From: an uncultured Chitinophagales bacterium
GTDB lineage: Bacteria; Bacteroidota; Ignavibacteria; UBA10030; F1-140-MAGs086
Assembly: GCA_964358705.1 (NCBI GenBank)
Contig: CAYHPL010000002.1
Span: forward strand, 173,017 to 237,016
Reading direction: 5' to 3'
DNA length: 64,000 bases
In this document: in pieces, positions 212 to 49,584 of the stretch
Layout of the letters: the number at the start of each line of letters is the position of its first letter
Position numbering within the stretch: the stretch's first letter is position 1
Notes under the pieces: generated by a model
Told to the model about the DNA's origin: nothing
The model's input: only the letters and a program-made list of their open reading frames with translations
Databases searched by the model: none
Program-made: the position numbers and the translations under genes

Positions 212-240
212 TTGAGTATAGTTAGTAAAAAAATATGGTG

Positions 241-313
241 TGCCCTCGACAAGACTCGAACTTGTATTAGAAGTTTAGGAAACTCCCGTTCTTTCCTGTT
301 GAACTACGAGGGC
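241..313 (-). tRNA. tRNA-Arg (anticodon CCT)
   Basis: The reverse complement folds as a cloverleaf: acceptor GCCCTCG/CGAGGGC, D-arm GTTC..GAAC, anticodon stem GGAGT/ACTTC with loop TTCCTAA (U33, anticodon CCT, A37), T-arm ACAAG-TTCGAGT-CTTGT, discriminator A. CCA is not encoded. Confidence 0.8.
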
Positions 314-9725: not shown

Positions 9726-10028
9726 ATGGCACGAATAATTTTTACAACAGCTTATCAGGTTCACCCTGCGTTGCGCGCGTCGTATCTTTCGCTTGCAGAC
9801 GATATGAAAAAATATTTCCTTGACCAGAAAAATATTGATTTCAGCGTGTATGAACAGCAGGGAAAAGAAAATAATTTTTCCGAAGTGTTCATTTTTGAGA
9901 CGGAGGAAGAATTTGAAACGTACGAAGATGGCAAGGATGAACAATGGAAACAACTTGAGCATCGCCTCGAAGAATATGTTCTCGATGGAAAGATGCAATA
10001 TTCCGTACTTGTAGAGCGCGTTGAATAA
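9726..10028 (+). CDS. Hypothetical acidic small protein
   Basis: It is a clean 100-aa ORF with no competing ORF. No motif was recognised. Confidence 0.4.
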   Translation: MARIIFTTAYQVHPALRASYLSLADDMKKYFLDQKNIDFSVYEQQGKENNFSEVFIFETEEEFETYEDGKDEQWKQLEHRLEEYVLDGKMQYSVLVERVE

Positions 10029-18399: not shown

Positions 18400-18472
18400 G
18401 GGGTTGTAGCTCAGTTGGGAGAGCGTTCGGTTCGCATCCGAAAGGTCGAGAGTTCGAATCTCTTCAACTCCA
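18400..18472 (+). tRNA. tRNA-Ala (anticodon CGC)
   Basis: Cloverleaf: acceptor GGGGTTG/CAACTCC with a G3:U70 Ala identity pair, D-arm GCTC-AGTTGGGA-GAGC, anticodon stem TTCGG/CCGAA with loop TTCGCAT, T-loop TTCGAAT, discriminator A. Confidence 0.8.
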
Positions 18473-18477
18473 CAAAA

Positions 18478-35959: not shown

Positions 35960-37114
35960 TCAATATGACATTGTATTTTGCACTTCCTCGACAGATATTT
36001 CTTTCATACATCGCGCATTGTACGGACAAACAAATGTTTTTGCATCGTAAATATTCATACATGGACTGCAGGAAATATTTTTATAAATCACTCTATTGCG
36101 CCCGCCAATCGGTCCGTAAAATTCCGGTGTCTCAGGTCCGAATAATGAAATCGTGCGCGTTCCCAGCGCTGAGGCAATGTGCAATGGTCCACTGTCATTT
36201 GTCAGTAGCAATGTTGCTCTGCGCAGCAATGCAAGTAATTCTCCAAACGTAAGTTTCCCTGCGACATTGAGTACGCTATTTTTGTTTATTGAAGTAACAA
36301 TGCTTTCCACATAATCAAATTCGTCGTTGCTTCCTGTAAAAAAATAGAGTGCAGTTTCATCATACGCTATTGATAGAAGTTCTGCAAATTTATCAGCATC
36401 CCAACGGCGTTCGAGAAAAGTATTTCCTGCGTTAACGTTTATACAAATGAGTGTCTTGTTTTTTATATCAATGCCAAAATGAGTTTTTATTGTGTATTCC
36501 AAAGAAATTTCATCGCTCTCCAAAATTTCCGGTGAAGAAAGTGCAATGGATGTTTTTTTCAATGTATCGCTTGTTACCTGTGAAAGAAACGCCTCTGCAA
36601 CGTGGTGAAGTTTATTGAGCGGCATCGGATGTGTAACGTGAAATTTTCTCCACTGTGTCGGAAGCGCAAATGCAAATCGTTGCGGTGCAGAAGTAAGCGC
36701 AGAAAGTAGTGTTGAAAATTTAGAAAAGAATTCAAAATCGAAAACGACATCGAATTTTTTATTTTTGCACTCGCGCAACGCAACAATTGTACCGCGGATA
36801 AAATCATCAAGTGTTGCTGTGGATATCGCTATAATAGAATCTATGAATGGCAGGCGTTTCAGTAATTCTTTTTGTGCATTGAAACTTATGAAAGTAATTG
36901 CTGCATTCGGAAAACGCTTATGGATTTCCCGCAATGCGGGAGTGAGAAGAATAATGCTTCCCATACCAAAAAATTTGATTACTAAAATTTGTTTTACATT
37001 TGCATCCGCAACAGCATATCTGCGCCTTTGAAATATCAGTCTCCAAATGCCGAGAAGCCAGCAAAGTGGAATTCCGGCGAAGCGGTCAAGAGCACGCATC
37101 AAACGCACAGTCAT
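35960..37114 (-). CDS. Glycosyltransferase family 9 (ADP-heptose:LPS heptosyltransferase-like)
   Basis: ILVIKFFGMGSIILLTPALREI, LICINVNAG and the C-terminal LLTNDSGPLHIASALGTRTISLFG are present. Confidence 0.85.
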   Translation of the reverse strand: MTVRLMRALDRFAGIPLCWLLGIWRLIFQRRRYAVADANVKQILVIKFFGMGSIILLTPALREIHKRFPNAAITFISFNAQKELLKRLPFIDSIIAISTATLDDFIRGTIVALRECKNKKFDVVFDFEFFSKFSTLLSALTSAPQRFAFALPTQWRKFHVTHPMPLNKLHHVAEAFLSQVTSDTLKKTSIALSSPEILESDEISLEYTIKTHFGIDIKNKTLICINVNAGNTFLERRWDADKFAELLSIAYDETALYFFTGSNDEFDYVESIVTSINKNSVLNVAGKLTFGELLALLRRATLLLTNDSGPLHIASALGTRTISLFGPETPEFYGPIGGRNRVIYKNISCSPCMNIYDAKTFVCPYNARCMKEISVEEVQNTMSY

Positions 37115-37899
37115 TGCTTTTGCAGGACAATTACAACGTGGTCGGAAAAATTATAGAGTGGAAAAGTATGCCGCCGTTCTTCTTCCCATTGCAAAAGTGT
37201 TGAGCATAATGCAGGATGACGTTCATAAAATCCCATCGCATTCGGATTCGGAGAAATGAAATTCAGCCCATAAATTTCACGGCAGAAAAATTCGCGGGAG
37301 GACATTCTGACGATGTCATTTGCAAAATAGTAATGGGTGCGGATTGTCTTTCCGAAAACATTTGCATCCGTTCCATTGCTTTGCACTCTGCGAAATGCAT
37401 CATGAATTTTTCCCTTGAGTAAAAATGCGAGAGTTTCCCACAGGCAGAATTTATTTAAAATGTTGAGAATAAAATATCCCTGCGGTTGAATGAGTGTTGC
37501 AATATTTTTCATTGTCGTCCGAATATCTGCTGCGCAATTTAATCCGCCGAAATTGGAAAGAACGCCGTCATAAATCATCGGGGAGAGCGATAAAATATTT
37601 TCAAAGGAAAGTTGCTGCGTGGAGATAAATTCCGAGAGATTTTCCTGCGAAATTTTTTCATTTGTTTTCTGAATCATTCCTTCCGAAGCATCTGTGGCGT
37701 GTACTTTCATTCCATTGCGTGCGAGAAAGAGTGCGTCTGTTCCGGTGCCGCAGTTTAATTCGAGTATGGAATTTCCATTTCTGAAATAATGCACCATTGT
37801 GTGTTGCACTGTTGCGCGGATTTTTTTTGTAATGGGATTACTTTCAAAATGCGTATCGTAATATTGCGCATACGAATCGAAAGGAGAGTGTGAATCCAT
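37111..37899 (-). CDS. Class I SAM-dependent methyltransferase
   Basis: Motif I is ILELNCGTGTDALFLARNGMKVHATDASEGM. It overlaps the GT9 gene by 4 nt. Confidence 0.8.
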   Translation of the reverse strand: MDSHSPFDSYAQYYDTHFESNPITKKIRATVQHTMVHYFRNGNSILELNCGTGTDALFLARNGMKVHATDASEGMIQKTNEKISQENLSEFISTQQLSFENILSLSPMIYDGVLSNFGGLNCAADIRTTMKNIATLIQPQGYFILNILNKFCLWETLAFLLKGKIHDAFRRVQSNGTDANVFGKTIRTHYYFANDIVRMSSREFFCREIYGLNFISPNPNAMGFYERHPALCSTLLQWEEERRHTFPLYNFSDHVVIVLQKQ

Positions 37900-40781: not shown

Positions 40782-41777
40782 TCATTTTCTCCTTAACACT
40801 TTCGCGGCATCTTTTGCAAAATATGTTAAAATCATATCTGCGCCTGCGCGTTTGATTCCTGTCAGCATTTCAAGCATTACGCGCTCTTCATCTATCCAGC
40901 CAAGTTGCGCTGCCGCTTTTACCATTGAATACTCGCCGCTTACGTTGTACGCCGCAGTTGGCATTTGAAATGTATCTTTCACGCGACGGATGATATCAAG
41001 ATAGGGCATTGCTGGCTTTACCATAACAATATCAGCCCCTTCTTCAATATCCGCGAGTACTTCGCGCATTGCTTCATTTGAATTTGCGGAATCCATCTGA
41101 TGGCTTCTTCTGTCGCCGAATTTCGGTGTGCTTTCTGCGGCTTCTCTGAATGGTCCGTAAAATCCTGATGCATATTTTGCAGCATACGACATTATTGGAA
41201 GATTTAAGAATCCGTTCTCGTCTAATATTGTTCTGATTGCAAGAATTCTTCCATCGAACATATCCGAAGGCGCAACCATATCGCAACCTGCCACTGCATG
41301 CGAAAGCGCTTCTTTCATCAATAGTTCTACGGATTCATCATTAACAATTTCATTGCCGCGTACGATTCCGCAGTGTCCATGCGAAGTATATTCGCACATA
41401 CACACATCGGTGATAATACAAAGTTCCGGCACTTCTTTTTTAATTGCGCGCACTGCTTGCTGTACGACGCCATTTTCCATATATCCTTCACTGCCAATTT
41501 CGTCTTTGTGTTCGGGAATACCAAAAAGAATCACTGCCGGAATGCCGAGCGAATATACTTCGATACATTCGCGTACAATTACATCCACAGACATTTGATA
41601 CACGCCGGGCATTGATGAAATTTCTTTTTTTATTTTTGTTCCTGCAACAACAAATAATGGATATATAAAATCATTTGTCGCAAGTTCCGTTTCACGCACC
41701 ATTGAGCGAAGTGTCGCATTCATTCTTGTGCGGCGGAGACGATTAAAATTGAGATTTGTAACAGGGGATTTGTGCAT
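40782..41777 (-). CDS. hemB: Porphobilinogen synthase (delta-aminolevulinate dehydratase)
   Basis: [27 protein letters not shown], an active-site Lys region and a metal-binding Cys cluster ([12 protein letters not shown]) are present. Confidence 0.95.
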
Positions 41778-42012
41778 GGGAATTTGTGTAGTAAGTTTTC
41801 AGTGTAATATTTTTTTGTGGACAAAAATACGGAGAAGGAGAGGAAAATAAAAAATGTAAAGGAATTTGTCATACCGAATTCGCCGAATTGAATGAAGAAT
41901 CTTTTCTGATGCCATATTTTTTACAGTAAAAGTATTACTCATAAAATTTTTGGCTTACAAAATAATATTAGTATCTTTTTCCCGCATTTTGTAACACTTA
42001 TATAAAAACTGT

Positions 42013-42249
42013 ATGCAAACATCTACAATGACGGTGAAAGGACAAATCCTTGTTCCCTCAAAAATCCGCAAACAAAAAGGAATGAAAAAAGGAACAGTAA
42101 TTATCTTCATCGAAAAGGGCGATGATGTAATTATCCGTCCTTTGACGAAAGATTACTTTGAGCGGTACGCGGGTATATTTAACGACAAGGAGAGTGAACT
42201 GGAAATTTTACTGGAAGAGCGGAAGAAAGATAAAGCCAAAGGAAAATAA
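42013..42249 (+). CDS. vapB: AbrB/SpoVT-domain antitoxin (VapB/MazE-like)
   Basis: MTVKGQILVPSKIRKQKGMKKGTVI is a swapped-hairpin domain. It lies 5 nt upstream of the PIN toxin gene. Confidence 0.7.
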   Translation: MQTSTMTVKGQILVPSKIRKQKGMKKGTVIIFIEKGDDVIIRPLTKDYFERYAGIFNDKESELEILLEERKKDKAKGK

Positions 42250-42254
42250 CCCGA

Positions 42255-42656
42255 ATGAAAAAATACGTTCTTGATAGTTATGCGCTGATTGTGTATTTCC
42301 GCAAACAAAAAGGATGGGAAATTGTCCGCGATTTGCTCTTTGAAGCATTTCAATCCGACCAAAAAATGTTTCTTACTTCGATTAACTGGGGGGAAGTATA
42401 TTACACACGCTTACAAACCGGCGATGAAGAGAAAGCGGAAGAAGCAGTCCGCGCAATAAAAAATATGCCCATTGACGTGGTTGAAGAAATTGATACGCGT
42501 CTTACAAAACAGGCAGGAAAATATAAAGCGCTCGGCGGAATTGCCTACGCAGATTGCTTCGCCGCCGCTCTCGCCAAAAAAGAAAACGCAATACTCGTTA
42601 CGGGCGATAAAGAGCTTGCACAATTGGAAAAAGAAATTAAAATTTTGTGGATTTAG
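42255..42656 (+). CDS. vapC: PIN-domain ribonuclease toxin (VapC)
   Basis: YVLDSYALIVYF..INWGEVYY..GIAYADCFAAALAKKENAILVTGDKEL carries the PIN acidic residues. Confidence 0.8.
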   Translation: MKKYVLDSYALIVYFRKQKGWEIVRDLLFEAFQSDQKMFLTSINWGEVYYTRLQTGDEEKAEEAVRAIKNMPIDVVEEIDTRLTKQAGKYKALGGIAYADCFAAALAKKENAILVTGDKELAQLEKEIKILWI

Positions 42657-42773
42657 AAAGGGAAAATTAAAATGAACATAGAAAAATTATTTCAAGCAGT
42701 GAAAGACGAACCAATGGAGCACACTCTCATAATAGCGGTTAGCGAATTAAAGCGGCAAGGTTTTAAGTAACTG

Positions 42774-43550
42774 TTAATATTTTTTTTCAAATATTTCTCT
42801 TGAATGATAATCGAGAAATTCTTTTCCTGGTAAAAACTTCTCAGGTAATATTATTTTGATGTTGTCATATTTTTCGAACATTGTTTCTATCGCTTTGTCA
42901 TTTTTTGTTTTGTAAATATTTTTGGAAACTTTTGTTTTAAATTCTGAGGTAATTGTGATTAAGCCACTATCAAATGCTTTGTCGTGAAGATAATTTAAAC
43001 ATAAACCATTAGAAGGATTCAACCTATTTTTTTCGTCAACCGACCAAGGAATGATATGGCTTGCAACAAGTAATTCTGAAATTGTCAAACCTGTAATACA
43101 GCATTTATTATTGTAAGATGAGAGAACAACCCTTCTGAAAAAATTTTGATTTATTCTTGATTTTATTATGGTTTCTCTTTCTTTTCCAATCGGAATATCC
43201 GCAGTATTTATTTCTGAAATATTTTCTAACGGTTGATTAGAAAGCTTTGCGATTAGTAATTCACTTTCATAGGCAAGATTATTCCAATCATTATTAAATT
43301 CATTCCATACGATTTCATCTAATTTACTAGTGTTTCCTAAACCTACAATTCCTCTCTTCTTTAATTCTGGGTCGAAACTTCCAAAGTTTCCAATTTTCAT
43401 TTTTACAGAATTTGGAGTTCTTCCAATAATTTTTGAAATCCGAATTATATCTGGATGGTTTGAACTTACTCTGTTGAATGGAATTTTGCAGTAAAGATTT
43501 AATGCAATAATAGTTTGTTCTCTTGTCCAAATAGTGTTTTCTCTTTTCAT
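42774..43550 (-). CDS. HNH endonuclease (HNH_2 / COG3183-like putative restriction endonuclease)
   Basis: The C-terminal segment CCITGL...ASHIIPWS...NGLCLNYLHDKAFDSGLITI is HNH-type. No adjacent methyltransferase gene was seen. Confidence 0.6.
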   Translation of the reverse strand: MKRENTIWTREQTIIALNLYCKIPFNRVSSNHPDIIRISKIIGRTPNSVKMKIGNFGSFDPELKKRGIVGLGNTSKLDEIVWNEFNNDWNNLAYESELLIAKLSNQPLENISEINTADIPIGKERETIIKSRINQNFFRRVVLSSYNNKCCITGLTISELLVASHIIPWSVDEKNRLNPSNGLCLNYLHDKAFDSGLITITSEFKTKVSKNIYKTKNDKAIETMFEKYDNIKIILPEKFLPGKEFLDYHSREIFEKKY

Positions 43551-43559
43551 AAGTTTACT

Positions 43560-43855
43560 GAATTAATTTTATCAAGTTCAATATTACGTTCATTATTTTT
43601 CTTCCACCACATTGTTCTTGTTATGGGAATTATAGCATATTTACAATTTTCATGTCAAAAACAACTATGAACAAAAATAACTGTTTTATATTTCGGTAAA
43701 ACTATGTCTGGCTTTCCCGGAAGTTTTTTATCATGGAGTTTGTAACGATAACCATTAGCAAAAAGAAATTTTCGTACAATCATTTCGGGTTTAGTGTCTT
43801 TGCTTCTGACCCGACTCAAATTGTAACTTCTTGTTTTCTTATCGTGAATATTCAT
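43560..43855 (-). pseudogene. vsr: Very-short-patch repair endonuclease (vsr) remnant. It is truncated by a stop after ~66 codons, with degenerate downstream homology.
   Basis: RSYNLSRVRSKDTKPEMIVRKFLFANGYRYKLHDKKLPGKPDIVLPKYKTVIFVHSCF matches the Vsr N-terminal half and then hits a stop. Downstream frames still show WWKKNNERNIELDKIN-like remnants. Confidence 0.55.
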
Positions 43856-43940
43856 TACGTTTTACAAATCTTCTATCATTCTCGCCACTTTTTCCCTACT
43901 CATCACGCAATCGCCCACCGAAATTTTTCTCTAACGATGT

Positions 43941-44159
43941 TCATTGTAGTTTCATAAACTCTTCTACCGTTAAACCAGCATCACGAATTATTTGACGTAG
44001 TGTCCCGCGTGCTATTTCTTTATGATTGGGAATAGTGAGGGGTTTTCGAGTTGTGTACCGGAGATGAATATGGCTGCCTTCCTGGTCCCGAAAGTAATAA
44101 CCAATTCGCTGCAATATTTTGAAAATTTCTTTTCCAGAAAGCACCGGAAGTTTACTCAT
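43941..44159 (-). CDS. hicA: HicA-family mRNA interferase toxin
   Basis: MSKLPVLSGKEIFKILQRIGYYFRDQEGSHIHL is the YcfA/HicA signature. Confidence 0.8.
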   Translation of the reverse strand: MSKLPVLSGKEIFKILQRIGYYFRDQEGSHIHLRYTTRKPLTIPNHKEIARGTLRQIIRDAGLTVEEFMKLQ

Positions 44160-44377
44160 ACAGCAACCGAAACAAGCAATTCTTTTTTTCCGTTTTCAGA
44201 ATGAAGCGGGATACCATCTTCCGAAAGAGAGCGCAAATGCAAGTGAATTGCTTCCTTCATATTTTTCACTGCTTGCTTTTCAGTTTTCCCTTGCGAAATG
44301 CATCCGGGAAGCGACGGGCATGTTGCAACATACCAATTATCTTCATCTTGTTCGAGAATTATTTTAAAGTTGAGCAT
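44156..44377 (-). CDS. hicB: HicB-family antitoxin
   Basis: FKIILEQDEDNWYVATCPSLPGCISQGKTEKQAVKNMKEAIHLHL is the UPF0150/HicB fold. It overlaps hicA by 4 nt. The start is moved to MLNFKIIL to avoid overlapping hemY. Confidence 0.75.
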   Translation of the reverse strand: MLNFKIILEQDEDNWYVATCPSLPGCISQGKTEKQAVKNMKEAIHLHLRSLSEDGIPLHSENGKKELLVSVAV

Positions 44378-44423: not shown

Positions 44424-45830
44424 CTATATATCAATTTTAACTGATTCGTCTATTCTCCTCGCCACACTTTCTCCGCTCATCACGCAATCACCAACAGAAA
44501 TTCCGCCACGAAAATTTGCACAGAGGAATGTTCCGCGAAAATTTTTTTCAAACTTATCCATTTCCTGTTCAATTTTGTAATAGCCGAGTTCATATTGCGG
44601 AATTGCTTTTTGCCAGCGATTGATTTGCACGAAATACGGCTCTCCTTCAATGCGCATTATTGATTGCAATTCTTCCAGTACTGTTTTCTGTAATTGCGCA
44701 TCATCTAAATTACAAATTTCCGGTTGACGCGAACCGCCTGCAAAAGTAGTCAGTGCAATACTATCATCCGGCGCGCGATTGGGAAACAGTGAAGATGACC
44801 AGATTGTGCCGAGTATTTTTCGTTGCTCTTTTTCAGGAATTAAAAACCCAAATCCGTCAAGTGCTCTTTTCATTTGCGATTTTTTAAATCCGAAAAATAT
44901 TTCTGCGACAGGCGGATAGTAAATATTGCTCAATGTAATTGCCATATTCGGGTCAATCTGTGCAATAATTTTTGCGAGCGCGTATGCTGGAATTGCAAAG
45001 AGAACATTGTGCGATTGCAATGTTTCTGCGCTTCCATTTTGCGTAAAAGAAACAGTGAACATACATTTATTTCCATCGCGCATCGGAATAACATGCTCCA
45101 CTGTTGCATTAAAGTGAATATCGTCTCCAAGAAATTTTGCAATCGCTTTCGGAAACGTTTGCATGCCGTTTTTAAAAGAAAACATTTTCGCAGATTCTTT
45201 GCTCTGTTCTCCGCTCCGGGCTTTTCTCTTCCGTTCTTTTTTTCCGCGAATAACTCCTTTAAAAATTCCACCGTATTTTTCTTCCAATGCAAATAATTTC
45301 GGAAACGCAGAACGCACGCTTAATTTTTTCGGGTCGCCTGCAAATACTCCTGCGACAAACGGGTTGATAAAATAATCGAGAAATTCTTTGCCTAATCTTC
45401 GCTCAACAAATTGCGCAATAGATTCTTCGTGCATTGCTCTTCCCTGGAATAATTCACCTGCAACACGAAACTTTCCTTTCCAGCTGAGTAATTTTGTTTT
45501 TAAAAATGCGGGCGGACTCATTGGCATTTCCTCGAGTTGTCCGTTTTTTAAAATGTATCGCTTGTTCGATGATGCGCTTGCGTAAAGCATTTCATCTGCG
45601 ATGCCGAGTTCGTTGACCATTTGTTTGAAAAGAGGAGTTGTTTCGAGTGCGCTGTTCGGTCCGCTTTCAATCATAAATCCATCAATGACTGCTGTTTTCA
45701 TTGTTCCGCCGACATCCGCGTCTGCTTCGAGAATTGTAACATTCCAGCCGCTTTTTTTGAGAAAATATGCAGCAGTCAATCCTGAAATTCCTGCGCCGAT
45801 AATAATAATGTGCTTGTTATTGTTCATCAA
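44424..45830 (-). CDS. hemY: Protoporphyrinogen oxidase, FAD-dependent (HemY/PgoX)
   Basis: An N-terminal FAD fold IIIIGAGISGLTAAYFLKKSGWNVTILEADADVGG is present. It is ~468 aa and sits in the heme gene context. Confidence 0.8.
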   Translation of the reverse strand: MMNNNKHIIIIGAGISGLTAAYFLKKSGWNVTILEADADVGGTMKTAVIDGFMIESGPNSALETTPLFKQMVNELGIADEMLYASASSNKRYILKNGQLEEMPMSPPAFLKTKLLSWKGKFRVAGELFQGRAMHEESIAQFVERRLGKEFLDYFINPFVAGVFAGDPKKLSVRSAFPKLFALEEKYGGIFKGVIRGKKERKRKARSGEQSKESAKMFSFKNGMQTFPKAIAKFLGDDIHFNATVEHVIPMRDGNKCMFTVSFTQNGSAETLQSHNVLFAIPAYALAKIIAQIDPNMAITLSNIYYPPVAEIFFGFKKSQMKRALDGFGFLIPEKEQRKILGTIWSSSLFPNRAPDDSIALTTFAGGSRQPEICNLDDAQLQKTVLEELQSIMRIEGEPYFVQINRWQKAIPQYELGYYKIEQEMDKFEKNFRGTFLCANFRGGISVGDCVMSGESVARRIDESVKIDI

Positions 45831-48800
45831 GTGTTTCTCGAATTTTTCTCAGTACAAATGGGATGTCGTACGGTTTTTGAAGAAATGATTTAACTCCTGT
45901 GCCGGAGAACGATGAATAAATGTTCGGTTCAAATAACCCGCTGACGAAAATTATTTTCAATTGCGGATTCATCAGTAACATTTTTCTGCAGGCATCTGCG
46001 CCATTTAATTTCGGCAATCCGATATCGGAGAGTACTAATGAAATATTGTGCCGATTATCCGTGTATATGTTCACTGCTTCTTCTCCGTCTTTTGCCCAGA
46101 GTACATTGTATCCTGTTTTTGTTAAATTCGCACAGACGATTTCACCGAGTAACTCTTCATCCTCGACGACTAACAGCGTTTCTTTTCCATGAAAATTTTC
46201 TGTTTTCAAATGTTGCTGCTGTTTTGATTCCCACTGAATTTCGTACATCGGAAGATATATCGAAAATTTTGTTCCTTTCCCTTGTGTACTTTCGACATCA
46301 ATGAATCCGTTATGAGACCGGACAATTCCATAAGTTACAGATAATCCTAATCCCGTACCTTTTCCTTGTTCTTTCGTAGTGAAAAATGGTTCAAAAATAT
46401 GTTGTTTTATATCCTCCTGCATTCCAACTCCCGTATCAGCGACAGAAATACATACATATTCATTTGCAGAAGCGGAGGGATATTTAATTTGCAGAAAGGA
46501 ACTTTTCACCGTTGAAGCAGAGAGAGTGATGCACCCGCCATCCGGCATTGCATCTCTTGCATTAATGCAAAGGTTTGTGATTGCCTGATGCAACTGATTG
46601 CTGTCAGCAATGACAAACGGAATATTTTCGTCATTCTGAATTTTGCATTCAATAGTTTTAGGAAATGTATCCGTGATGATTTTAAAAATTTCGTGAAAAA
46701 AATCAAATAGAATGACTGGTTCGAAAGTAGTTTCATTTTTGCGTGCAAAAGTGAGTAATTGTTCAACTAATTTTGCGCCGCGCTTCACCGCTTTCTGAAT
46801 TGCAACCGTGCTTTTTTCGACCGTTGGATTATTCTGTATTTGTTCGGTGAGGAGAGAGCTGTATCCGCTAATAATGCCGAGAAGATTATTGAAATCGTGT
46901 GCAATACCGCCGGCAAGTTTTCCGATGGTTTCCATTTTTTGCGATTGGCGCAGTTGTGCTTCTATTTCTCTGTGTTCGGTAACATCACGCATAATGCCGC
47001 GTATTGCAATAAAATCTCCGCGCTTATTCCGAACAGCGGTGGATGTTTCAAGAATGTAAAGTTTTTTTCCGGTTTTTGTTTTCAGAACGAGTTCATAATT
47101 TTTCAGATATCCTGTATTTGCAATTATTTGTATGATGGGCGTGCGTGATTTCGGATTGAAGTATAAATCATTTGCAATGTCAATTTTCAGCATTTCTTCT
47201 TTTGAAGCGTACCCAAAAACGTCAAGTCCTGTCTGATTGATATCAAGTAATTTTCCCTGCGGTGTGCCGAAATAAATTATATCTTTTGATTCTTCAAATA
47301 ATTCCTGATAGCGTGTTTCGCTTTCCAACAATTCTCGTGCGTGGGTTGTTTTACGTGCTTTCAGTGTTATCCAGAGTACAATAATCATCAGGAACATTGC
47401 GCCGGTAGGCAGATAGAATACTGGTCTTTTATACCATTGCAAAGGGGTGGTAAATATTTTGTGCGTTCCGTTGACATCAAAATTTCCAAACAGTGTTCGC
47501 GCCTGCAGTAGAATTGAATGTTCGCCGGAACAAATTTTTTGAAGTGAAATTTCACGCAGTGTGCTCCATTCAGACCAAGCAAGCGTATCTAATCGAAATC
47601 GTGTCTGAATAAACTGCGGCATCGGTTCTCCCCAATATCCAAAAACATTCCATCGAATAACAGTTTGTTCATTATCGGTAATTGGTTCCTGAATTATGAT
47701 GCGCGGATACGGTTGAACATTTTCTTTGAGATTCAATATTGCAAGTCCCGCTCCCAGTGTGCCTGCAAGGATTTTATCTTTTATCGGTAGCAATGACCAA
47801 AGGCGGGAATTATGCAAGCCGGTGCTTCCTCCAAAAGTACTCCACTGATTATTGGCAAAACATCCTAATCCTCCGCTTGAAGCATACCAGAGAGTACCAT
47901 TTGAAGCAACGCATAATTCCCAAACTTTTGCGCTAATCAATCCATCAGAAGTTGAGTAGTAGTGAATTTCATCATGTGCATTTATCGTCCCGATACCGTT
48001 AAACTGGTCTGCAAACCAGAGTTGATTACTGCTATCTATTACAACAGTGAAAATTCTATTGGAAATTAATCCCTGGTCGCTTGTCCAATGTTTCCATTTG
48101 CCATTTTTCCATTTACTGATTCCACCAATTGTTGCAAACCAAAATGCGCCATCTTTTCCTTCAACAAAAGAGTACACACGTCCGTGAATAAGTCCTTCGG
48201 CAGTACTCCACCGTGTAAATTTTCCGCTCTCAAATACATACGCGCCGGGCTGCTGTTCTTTTGATGTAAAAGGTGAGGGAGACAATCCTAAAAACCATAA
48301 TCGTCCTTTGTGGTCTTTGCGGATTTTATGAATATACACGCCGTCGTCGTTATTGAGAATTGGAAAATGTTCCCATTGATTGTTGTACCATCGAAAAGTT
48401 CCTTTAAAAGAATTGCCGCTGCCGAGCCATATTCCACCTTCATTATCTTCACCTAATGCAGTGATTTCGTTGAGCGGAATTTTTCCAATGTGTGTCGTAG
48501 AAGTTTTTTCTCCGCCTGGAGAAAGAATTTCAACACCGGAACCTGTTCCAAACCAGATTTCGTCCCGGGAAGTTTTTAAAATTTCATTGATGCGATTTCG
48601 TGAATCGGGAGTCGTATATTTTTTACTGCTCCAACGGGATGACGATTGACGGAAGAGATACAAACCATTGTTTGTTCCAATCCAGGCATCGCCATTATTT
48701 CGGTAACAAATGTATTGTATGTTTTGAATATGCTGAGGCAGCGGTGGAAGCGCAATCCATTTGTCGTGTTTTCTCAACCGCAATTCATTGGATTCGTGAT

Positions 48801-49584
48801 ATGCAAGTACATCTCCGTTCGGGGCAATATCTCCGGAATGAATGTATTCGCCGTATTCTGTAGTATTACGTATGAACGTGCCATTATTTTTCCATTCCCA
48901 CAATCCGCGTATTTCTACCGGTGCAGCAATGGAAGCAAACCCATTGCCGTATTTATCTTCGATAATGCTGTTTACAGATAATCTTATTTTTTGTACGGAA
49001 AGTTTTTGTATCCATTGTCCATTTTCTAAACAATATAATCCGTTCAATACGTTCAGCCATATTTTTCCGGATTTTGTACGGAACAAATTTAAAACTAATC
49101 TACCACCTGCATCAACGGGAAGTGCAAAAGGAGTAACCATTCCATTCTCGTAAATGGAAAGAGTTACATCCTGGATGATGAGTAGTTTATTTTTTTCAAA
49201 TACAATAATGTTATTTACATTTTCAAGAGGAAGGAGTTGAAATCCGTTTTTATTTCCTTCGTAAGCTCTTCCATCAATAATGACGAATATGCGATTATTA
49301 TACGATTCATTGATGAGAGCAGGCAATCCGTGTGGAATTCCTTTCGATTCATCTATGGGAATCCATTGATAGCCATCAAAATATGCAATGCCATTTGAAG
49401 TACAGACCCAAATTGTGCCATCGGAAGTTTCAAGAACAGTTAAAATATTATTGGAAGGTAATCCGCTTGCAGTTGTGAACTGAACCCAACGCCATTCTTC
49501 TGCAAATTTTTCTTCCTGAGTATAAACAATACCCGTGCAGTTGAGAATAAAAATTAACACACAGTATAATGGAACCGATTTCAT
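45817..49584 (-). CDS. Hybrid sensor histidine kinase / response regulator. A periplasmic two-component-regulator-propeller plus Y_Y_Y sensor is followed by a TM helix, PAS, HisKA, HATPase and REC. There is no DNA-binding domain.
   Basis: The N-terminus has a signal peptide plus repeated beta-propeller blades. The kinase core includes an H-box IAHDFNNLL, an N-box ITNLCINARDAM and a G-box DTGVGM. The REC domain reads LLVVEDEELL...LVLSDIGLPKLNG. Confidence 0.85.
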   Translation of the reverse strand: MKSVPLYCVLIFILNCTGIVYTQEEKFAEEWRWVQFTTASGLPSNNILTVLETSDGTIWVCTSNGIAYFDGYQWIPIDESKGIPHGLPALINESYNNRIFVIIDGRAYEGNKNGFQLLPLENVNNIIVFEKNKLLIIQDVTLSIYENGMVTPFALPVDAGGRLVLNLFRTKSGKIWLNVLNGLYCLENGQWIQKLSVQKIRLSVNSIIEDKYGNGFASIAAPVEIRGLWEWKNNGTFIRNTTEYGEYIHSGDIAPNGDVLAYHESNELRLRKHDKWIALPPLPQHIQNIQYICYRNNGDAWIGTNNGLYLFRQSSSRWSSKKYTTPDSRNRINEILKTSRDEIWFGTGSGVEILSPGGEKTSTTHIGKIPLNEITALGEDNEGGIWLGSGNSFKGTFRWYNNQWEHFPILNNDDGVYIHKIRKDHKGRLWFLGLSPSPFTSKEQQPGAYVFESGKFTRWSTAEGLIHGRVYSFVEGKDGAFWFATIGGISKWKNGKWKHWTSDQGLISNRIFTVVIDSSNQLWFADQFNGIGTINAHDEIHYYSTSDGLISAKVWELCVASNGTLWYASSGGLGCFANNQWSTFGGSTGLHNSRLWSLLPIKDKILAGTLGAGLAILNLKENVQPYPRIIIQEPITDNEQTVIRWNVFGYWGEPMPQFIQTRFRLDTLAWSEWSTLREISLQKICSGEHSILLQARTLFGNFDVNGTHKIFTTPLQWYKRPVFYLPTGAMFLMIIVLWITLKARKTTHARELLESETRYQELFEESKDIIYFGTPQGKLLDINQTGLDVFGYASKEEMLKIDIANDLYFNPKSRTPIIQIIANTGYLKNYELVLKTKTGKKLYILETSTAVRNKRGDFIAIRGIMRDVTEHREIEAQLRQSQKMETIGKLAGGIAHDFNNLLGIISGYSSLLTEQIQNNPTVEKSTVAIQKAVKRGAKLVEQLLTFARKNETTFEPVILFDFFHEIFKIITDTFPKTIECKIQNDENIPFVIADSNQLHQAITNLCINARDAMPDGGCITLSASTVKSSFLQIKYPSASANEYVCISVADTGVGMQEDIKQHIFEPFFTTKEQGKGTGLGLSVTYGIVRSHNGFIDVESTQGKGTKFSIYLPMYEIQWESKQQQHLKTENFHGKETLLVVEDEELLGEIVCANLTKTGYNVLWAKDGEEAVNIYTDNRHNISLVLSDIGLPKLNGADACRKMLLMNPQLKIIFVSGLFEPNIYSSFSGTGVKSFLQKPYDIPFVLRKIRETLDEQ

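Follow-up and report, generated by a model that had tools for sequence, protein, structure and literature searches.

The only studied homologue of the nuclease treated here comes from Neisseria, where the NgoAXIII restriction-modification (R-M) locus consists of a Vsr gene followed by a truncated and inactive methylase of 133 aa in most strains and 362 aa in N. lactamica (PMC6789123). In the gonococcal numbering, NGO0300 is the Vsr protein and NGO0303 the restriction endonuclease (PMC11323468), and ngo0302 has been described as part of a split methylase and ngo0303 as the gene of RM2R, or R.NgoAXIII (PMC13321361). The latter study reported that no cuts at CCGG with CG overhangs could be detected in a mutant lacking both CCGG modules, that each single mutant kept part of them and that complementation brought them back; that the cut CCGG sites were unmethylated, as were most CCGG sites of the genome, and were cut at low frequency; and that overexpression of R.NgoAXIII was lethal and an RM2R orthologue absent from N. 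lactamica (PMC13321361). Here, we describe a homologous HNH endonuclease gene in a 64,000-nt stretch of contig CAYHPL010000002.1 (hereafter the window) from an uncultured Chitinophagales bacterium, where it lies with a vsr remnant and two toxin-antitoxin pairs in a 2.6-kb variable patch between the heme genes hemB and hemY. We hold, with a confidence little above even, that the cassette stump of this lineage carries an orphaned nuclease of Type II-like character whose linked methylase is gone.

A tblastn search of plasmid records matched the HNH protein to two N. gonorrhoeae chromosomes at 51% identity over residues 8-255 (96% of the protein, E 1e-72). Both are 2.17-Mb gonococcal chromosomes filed as plasmids, and their gene tables are nearly empty (17 features), so the HNH locus was read from raw open reading frames (ORFs). 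In one of them (locus L092; NZ_CP119142.1, 369365-380099), the order is pheS, vsr (145 aa), a 133-aa stump that corresponds to a methylase N-terminus ending at motif IV, a 113-aa ORF, the 249-aa HNH homologue and pheT. Gene order and locus-tag numbering together suggest that this HNH ORF is ngo0303. On the strength of its homology to R.NgoAXIII, the enzyme of the window most likely recognizes a short sequence, probably CCGG, and cuts it where it is unmethylated.

The six ORFs that an earlier reading of the sequence alone (the sequence-only reading) had named in the patch are all present where it placed them, and each matches its named family in profile searches (Table 1). The same reading had described the vsr gene as cut after about 66 codons. 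The 66-codon N-terminus is real (ORF 43655-43855, matching PF03852 with 99 bits at profile positions 1-66 of 74), but the frame stays Vsr-like past the stop, to about codon 102. Codon 67 is an in-frame TGA at 43657-43655, which gives CF*H against the CFWH of Vsr (Trp TGG to TGA); beyond it the frame reads HENCKYAIIPITRTMWWKKNNERN..., matching positions 71-102 of 143 of the Vsr hidden Markov model (HMM), and its final TGA shares bases with the HNH ATG, the last ~40 codons (HMM positions 103-143) being missing. Two lesions, the nonsense codon and the C-terminal loss, make the vsr gene a pseudogene that falls short of a complete Vsr fold of ~140 aa. The vsr-HNH part also stands out in composition, with a G+C content of 0.28-0.31 over 42600-43800 against 0.37-0.45 in the flanks.

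Table 1 Features of the hemB-hemY interval and its flanks, in window coordinates.
Feature	Coordinates	Strand	Evidence or remark
hemB (porphobilinogen synthase), right-hand core flank	40782..41777	-	PF00490 (ALAD) 510 bits, NF006762 518 bits
Ancestral hemY-hemB intergenic spacer, hemB-attached	41778..41855	.	blastn alignment to L087
vapB-like antitoxin, AbrB/SpoVT fold, 78 aa	42013..42249	+	TIGR01439 32.5 bits (cut-off 28.3)
vapC-like PIN toxin, 133 aa	42255..42656	+	PF01850 59.8 bits
Lineage-specific cargo: vsr remnant and HNH, low G+C	42671..43874	.	L089 homology ends at 43875 and 42670
Intact HTH-HNH_2 endonuclease gene, 258 aa, R.NgoAXIII family	42774..43550	-	PF13391 44.8 bits; PDLC04132 321.6 bits
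vsr pseudogene	43547..43855	-	PF03852 99 bits; Vsr HMM positions 3-67 and 71-102 of 143
sigma-70-type promoter match	43629..43658	-	TTGACA, 18 nt, TGnTATAAT; inside vsr pseudogene
Relic of ancestral hemY 3' end, ISVGDCVMSREKVARMIEDL*	43862..43924	-	repeat with 44446-44502
hicA toxin, 72 aa	43941..44159	-	PF07927 66 bits
hicB-like antitoxin, 73 aa from ATG	44156..44377	-	PF15919 43.6 bits; also called as 73 aa on L002
hemY (protoporphyrinogen oxidase), left-hand core flank	44424..45830	-	TIGR00562 354 bits
Present hemY 3' end, second copy of duplicated segment	44424-44502		

The family context of the HNH gene was surveyed in 80 species-level genomes, whose called ORFs were scanned against Pfam and against HMMs derived from the loci themselves; counts refer to the 3 kb around HNH, and all loci were found through HNH, so that its persistence in them is partly a matter of ascertainment. 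Some part of a cassette of C5 methylase, HpaII-like nuclease and Vsr accompanied the HNH gene at 61 of the 80 loci. A C5 methylase was complete at 6 loci and fragmentary at 15 (together 21/80) and Vsr was complete at 16 and fragmentary at 11 (together 27/80); an RE_HpaII-like nuclease ORF was recognized by our own HMM at 33, a conserved 86-aa ORF overlapping the HNH stop codon occurred at 19, and another 19 loci had none of these elements. A Pfam scan placed an RE_HpaII ORF after the HNH gene in 21 of 77 neighbours. With M for methylase, R for nuclease and V for Vsr, the recurrent orders were M-HNH-(86 aa)-R(HpaII-like)-V and V-M-HNH-(86 aa)-R. The closest relatives, with an HNH protein 84% identical to ours, carry Vsr, then a 123-131-aa C-terminal fragment of a C5 methylase on the other strand, then HNH. 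At 21 loci an intact HNH gene is directly abutted by a truncated methylase or vsr, and six of these (L025, L039, L050, L069, L078 and L084) are built like the window, with an N-terminal Vsr fragment running into HNH.

It is the abutting vsr remnant that gives the window the linkage to a C5 methylase and/or Vsr characteristic of the family. Since the HNH genes of its relatives sit beside C5 methylases, HpaII-like nucleases and Vsr, the truncated vsr and HNH of the window are best read as the stump of a cytosine-5 methylation R-M cassette. A six-frame HMM search of the 64 kb with filters off (E<=0.1) detected no C5 methylase, HpaII-like nuclease, second Vsr or 86-aa partner ORF. The remark in the sequence-only reading that the endonuclease lacks a cognate methyltransferase is borne out for C5 methylases across the 64-kb window, other methylase classes not having been searched systematically. 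The nearby methyltransferase gene at 37111-37899 has Methyltransf_11/23/25/31 and TehB domains, which are not DNA-methylase families, and as far as C5 methylases are concerned the adjacent cognate methyltransferase of a classical Type II R-M system is missing. In the sequence of events that we propose, a deletion would have removed the methylase together with the last third of vsr, what remained of vsr would then have been inactivated by a nonsense mutation, and HNH would have been spared, leaving in the middle 1.2 kb the stump of a vsr, C5 methylase and HNH nuclease cassette that may also have held an HpaII-like nuclease.

Several small genes recur around HNH. The ~86-aa ORF, with the consensus ...YLRPSRTIETILL...RIVYVYNYEGWHFRVF..., follows right after the HNH stop at L007, L014, L020, L022, L023, L025, L027, L034-L036, L051, L054, L057, L058, L063, L066-L068 and L072 and is absent from the window. 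The idea that it is a detached N-terminus of RE_HpaII was rejected, as it gave no Pfam match even at E<=10. A second family of ~70-80 aa (...FMDFFRD..KLN.L...DR.E.FS.IL.G.S.F...) ends at the HNH start at L008, L017, L024, L070, L073 and L079. Four Flavobacterium isolates (L028, L029, L037 and L046) carry a complete C5 methylase and a 437-aa NgoFVII-like nuclease, then HNH, with Vsr next in two of them; from these loci, the HNH family also occurs beside R-M systems that are not of HpaII type.

The protein itself is a full-length member of its family. The PADLOC model PDLC04132 ("HNH") aligns residues 4-257 with profile positions 25-275 of 286, a REBASE-derived "Type II restriction enzyme" model matches more weakly (148 bits), and PF13391 (HNH_2) covers residues 150-200. 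In an alignment of 63 sequences including that of the window, H165, N178, N181 and H189/D190 (the ASHI-PW ... N ... H/D core) are invariant or nearly so, and the window protein, whose ORF is intact, retains every invariant residue. At least 7,756 family matches were found at E<=1e-5, with proteins 65-84% identical across Ignavibacteria, Bacteroidota, Nitrospirota, Cyanobacteria, Proteobacteria, Patescibacteria and others. Pairwise dN/dS against six relatives was 0.07-0.13, a rough figure given that synonymous sites are saturated, and the family appears to be under purifying selection. The AlphaFold model has a pLDDT of 70, being confident at residues 10-104 and poor (<50) at the HNH core; Pfam gave only a sub-threshold Myb-like signal on the N-terminal domain, which we tentatively regard as a homeodomain/Myb/GcrA-like three-helix DNA binder. 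The predicted architecture would then be a small HTH-like targeting domain joined to an HNH_2 nuclease, in which the three-helix domain would pick the site and the HNH_2 (beta-beta-alpha-metal) domain would cut it.

These features bear on the proposal, made in the sequence-only reading, that the enzyme is Type IV-like and modification-dependent. A nuclease of this kind, McrA-like in logic, would attack C5-methylated DNA, and its arrival would be incompatible with a resident methylase, hence the truncated genes beside it. In keeping with this, the HNH_2 core is closest to modification-dependent enzymes: the only match to a solved structure is that of the core (residues 123-210) to VcaM4I (PDB 6yex, E 6e-10), and the NCBIfam model NF045808 for phosphorothioate-dependent nucleases gives 59 bits. 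Methylases are truncated at 15 of the 80 loci, missing at 59 and complete at 6, and most methylase-less carriers, including the window, show no CCGG avoidance. The two Neisseria species would fit as well: N. lactamica has the long methylase where the gonococcus has a stump (PMC6789123), and it is reported to lack an RM2R orthologue (PMC13321361). However, the N-terminal domain has none of the known modified-base readers (SRA, EVE/PUA, sulfur-binding or McrA N-terminal domain) and is predicted to be homeodomain/Myb HTH-like instead, and the NF045808 score falls far below its cut-off of 180 and covers only the C-terminal two-thirds. Furthermore, at six loci a full-length methylase has been kept upstream on the same strand within 3 kb, directly adjacent in two and with the NgoFVII-like nuclease gene between in the four from Flavobacterium, at odds with a family that should be unlinked to methylases, and the gonococcal homologue is reported to cut unmethylated CCGG. 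We therefore depart from the sequence-only reading on this point and consider modification dependence quite improbable.

Another account would make the HNH gene a selfish element that, at times with the 86-aa ORF, inserts at the methylase/nuclease junction of HpaII-type cassettes or in vsr, after which the cassette decays; the window would be an end state, and cleavage of CCGG would be compatible with it. DNA similarity between the loci is confined to the HNH ORF, and the proteins are 65-76% identical across phyla. Relative to HNH, methylase fragments may lie upstream in the same orientation, upstream in the opposite one or downstream in the opposite one, which implies several independent events. 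HNH-free M-R-V cassettes of HpaII type exist as well (L094-L097), at 43-55% protein identity to the HNH-bearing ones, which is too distant for exact insertion boundaries; the truncation points of the genes beside HNH vary between loci. At L015 the HpaII-like nuclease gene is complete and the methylase has lost its 3' half exactly where HNH sits. On the other side, the ascertainment through HNH hides any decay that removed HNH; neither recombinase nor flanking repeats, intron or intein context accompany the gene; closely related alleles with and without HNH were not recovered, so that no insertion boundary or target site is defined; and the 2.9 million viral contigs of IMG/VR hold no relatives (0 matches). 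Among 50,697 phage records there were three matches, one covering 94% of the protein at 44.5% identity and two distant and partial, and the family lacks the carriage by phages, introns or inteins expected of a free-standing homing endonuclease gene. Overall, we regard insertion of a selfish gene as unlikely.

If the enzyme cuts CCGG, the composition of the host DNA matters. The window holds 144 CCGG sites, and an active, unprotected CCGG cutter would be lethal to a cell with that many and no methylase. From the lack of CCGG avoidance it follows that an active enzyme would need an unlinked methylase or very weak expression, and the cell might survive by either, its sites being protected by a methylase encoded elsewhere or the nuclease being expressed at a very low level. 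The gonococcus is reported to combine low expression with a lack of protection. Elsewhere in the family, strong CCGG depletion was seen in 7 of 65 carrier loci, and CCGG is almost absent from L015 (0 observed against 22 expected), L040 (0/26), L026 (1/24) and L041 (2/21), each a locus of about 10-13 kb; at L015 and L026 the methylase is truncated and both the HNH and the HpaII-like nuclease ORFs are apparently intact. CCGG avoidance was considered as a signature of an active CCGG cutter and set aside, since, being absent in the window and inconsistent among carriers, it neither confirms nor excludes the specificity. Against Markov expectations, the palindromes avoided in the window are GATC (10 vs 165 expected, 0.06), GGCC (7 vs 54, 0.13), AGCT (20 vs 106, 0.19), CATG (67 vs 231, 0.29) and CTAG (5 vs 33), and CCGG, GCGC and CGCG are near expectation, which suggests long exposure to restriction at GATC, GGCC, AGCT and CATG.

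Expression of the HNH gene could start within the dead vsr. The promoter match there agrees with the sigma-70 consensus at 12 of 12 bases, has an extended -10 element, lies 79 nt upstream of the HNH start codon and is the sole 12/12 site among the 19 upstream regions of the window. Its -35 hexamer spans the vsr nonsense codon, the A of the TGA (43655) being the fourth base of TTGACA, and relatives with the intact vsr TGG read TTGGCA at that position. Across the 19 native upstream regions sigma-70-type scores were no better than those of shuffled sequences, and the sigma-70 consensus may not be that of the host; TAnnTTTG, the Bacteroidetes-type -7 motif, occurred in 5 of the 19 against 1.8 expected, a modest excess.

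Such a background leaves room for an inert relic, in which HNH would be a silent or inactive leftover that has yet to acquire disabling mutations and the promoter match would be irrelevant in the host. The genes that once accompanied it have been lost or inactivated, the window shows no avoidance of CCGG, and the TAnnTTTG excess together with the shuffle-level scores suggests that a sigma-70-type promoter is perhaps poorly used. Set against these observations are an intact ORF with all family-invariant residues, a low dN/dS on every pairwise path, and a locus sequence shared without a difference by three independent assemblies, all of groundwater from the Hainich aquifer. We consider a dead gene improbable. 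A tolerated orphan, kept harmless as the sequence-only reading had alternatively proposed, is plausible, and the intact ORF and the purifying selection in the family again speak against it. It is equally doubtful, in our estimation, that the gene is a parasite of cytosine-methylation R-M cassettes which inactivates the methylase and persists for long periods with no methylase linked to it, at weak expression with rare cuts in the host, the nonsense mutation in vsr and the creation of the -35 hexamer being part of its rewiring. If this were true, the gene might have taken on a further role by causing double-strand breaks and recombination at low frequency, comparable with the pilin variation reported in the gonococcus.

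Our preferred interpretation, an orphaned Type II-like nuclease left by a lost cassette, should itself be considered under several constraints. It is from gene order and locus-tag numbers that ngo0303 is equated with the HNH ORF, since PMC13321361 gives no sequence; the work on the gonococcal enzyme was genetic and done in vivo rather than biochemical; and as the two proteins are only 51% identical, they may differ in specificity. The modules have been called paralogous (PMC13321361), yet the gonococcal chromosome has a single HNH homologue: a search for a second paralogue there gave one matching place only, and an RE_HpaII query was likewise without a match; "paralogous" probably refers to the modules and not to the HNH protein. 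The fold assignment of the N-terminal domain is tentative, the full-length model being just moderate. In addition, CCGG is not avoided in the window (observed/expected 0.88), no C5 methylase is detectable in its 64 kb, and most HNH-bearing loci without a nearby methylase show no CCGG avoidance either.

The islet around the cassette stump has a longer history. The host is an Ignavibacteriales bacterium, and its nearest named hemY homologues also come from Ignavibacteriales. The sequence-only reading had called the block accessory, and a relative shows it to be an insertion: in an Ignavibacteriales genome (GCA_018335975.1, loci L087/L088; hemY 76% identical), hemB follows hemY after 60 bp. Window positions 41855-40790 align by blastn with that locus starting at the base after the hemY stop codon, and its ancestral 60-bp spacer corresponds to window 41778-41855. 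An identical block in relatives, which would have argued against recent acquisition, was not found; a second relative (L089/L090, hemY 77% identical) holds other cargo at the same site, in the order hemY, hicBA, a PemK-type toxin pair, four ORFs of no assigned function, a PIN pair and hemB. DNA alignment shows the window and L089 to be collinear from hemY through hicBA and the hemY-tail relic to 43875, and again from 42670, at the end of vapC, into hemB.

The relic is part of a 57-nt direct repeat of the hemY 3' end, which lies between vsr and hicA (43869-43925 vs 44446-44502, 79% identical); the live hemY end reads ISVGDCVMSGESVARRIDESVKIDI*, to be compared with the relic in Table 1. The relic is 89% identical to the true hemY 3' end of L087 and is for that reason the ancestral hemY end. 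It is also found after hicA in L089 (about 9885-9955), and this same bracketed arrangement in a sister lineage indicates that the hicBA insertion is old. Identities to the L089 counterparts are 89% for hicA, 88% for hicB and 87% for hemB. The PIN pair differs: compared with the same-position pair of L089 (12859-13484), the antitoxin is 63% and the toxin 43% identical, and DNA similarity vanishes between 42136 and 42560, within the pair. Given these values against 87% in the adjoining hemB, part of the PIN module was probably exchanged or replaced relative to L089.

Because L089 carries hicBA and vapBC here too but encloses other genes between them, the islet is layered. In the older layer, hicBA would have inserted at the hemY 3' end with a duplicated hemY tail, a vapBC-type pair would have stood beside hemB, and both are shared with L089; only the ~1.2 kb at 42671-43874 is lineage-specific. 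The description of the block as a decayed R-M island is thus upheld for the middle 1.2 kb, given the cassette context in 80 genomes, and fails for the islet as a whole, since hicBA and vapBC are older and shared with L089. The hemY-hemB junction is a small hot spot for accessory genes in this Ignavibacteriales lineage, and the islet is a case of ordinary genome flux. The islet has no recombinase, and the hemY duplication is the one meaningful repeat, direct or inverted, at the bounds of the cargo. Neither of the two tRNA genes in the window (240-313 and 18400-18473) is close to the islet.

Both toxin-antitoxin pairs are recognizable from their sequences. The first has a small putative DNA-binding antitoxin directly upstream of a PIN toxin with a 5-nt gap, as expected of VapBC; the VapB-like ORF reaches 22 bits against Pfam MazE_antitoxin, under the cut-off, and by inspection the PIN protein has all of its acidic residues (D7, E47, D100 and D118). 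The second combines HicA_toxin and HicB-like domains in adjacent, co-oriented small genes with a 4-nt overlap, as in HicAB, with hicB upstream of hicA. Between the HNH stop and vapC are 117 nt whose sole ORF, of 32 codons (MNIEKLFQAVKDEPMEHTLIIAVSELKRQGFK, 42673-42771, + strand), fills the gap and was called as a gene on L002; no relatives of it were detected, and it may be spurious. Within the heme gene set, a 1255-aa hybrid sensor kinase/response regulator (45817-49584, - strand) overlaps the hemY start by 14 nt, and this arrangement is kept in L087 and L089.

For this genome the consequences are small, the islet being a small layered accessory patch with parts from known families. What is worth keeping is the layered hot spot, the coincidence of nonsense codon and -35 hexamer, and the recurrence, throughout the family, of intact nucleases next to inactivated methylase and vsr genes. 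R-M systems usually decay nuclease first, an order that is reversed where an intact nuclease repeatedly stands beside a dead methylase or vsr. The HNH family is very common, strongly conserved and spread across phyla, and it often outlives its protective methylase. If such orphan nucleases are active at a low level, as has been described for the gonococcal one, they could cause self-inflicted DNA breaks and recombination in many organisms, and the window would then offer a minimal natural example consisting of a nuclease and a promoter only.

Compared with known systems, the first pair of the islet resembles VapBC modules in domain content, size, tight spacing and conserved PIN acidic residues, although its toxin scores 20.6 bits against the 80 needed by the NCBIfam VapC equivalog model. 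The second resembles HicAB modules in domains, sizes and overlap and has hicB before hicA, the less common order. The group of Kobayashi has reportedly described long target duplication on insertion of R-M units. The hicBA pair likewise lies between direct copies of a hemY 3' stretch of ~57-80 nt, but these are just 79% identical and old, being shared with L089, and the cargo is a toxin-antitoxin pair and not an R-M unit. Relative to the Dcm-Vsr very-short-patch repair system of E. coli, the remnant is a true Vsr homologue (99 bits), whereas this copy is a pseudogene without a Dcm partner and so nonfunctional.

With the modification-dependent HNH_2 enzymes, namely VcaM4I (EVE-HNH, 6yex), the ScoMcrA-type sulfur-binding-domain-HNH proteins (NF045808) and SRA-HNH proteins such as TagI, the window protein shares the HNH_2 module with its preceding helical linker and the two-part plan of an N-terminal targeting domain and a C-terminal nuclease, but it has a small, predicted helical HTH-like domain in place of an EVE, SRA or sulfur-binding domain. 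Those enzymes are rarely methylase-linked (PMC6765204), whereas the R.NgoAXIII-like family often is. HpaII-type R-M cassettes (C5 methylase, RE_HpaII and Vsr) supply the family context from which the window fragment would derive, although it keeps neither the methylase nor the HpaII-like nuclease and the HNH protein is unrelated to RE_HpaII. The R.NgoAXIII locus differs from the window in its intact and active vsr with a 133-aa methylase stump, where ours has a dead vsr and no methylase, and in that the gonococcus has a second CCGG methylase (M.NgoAXIV), none being visible in the 64-kb window. The two loci nevertheless agree in full-length HNH homology, in the order vsr, methylase remnant and HNH, in a methylase that is inactive or absent, and in a cassette set between two housekeeping genes of one pathway.

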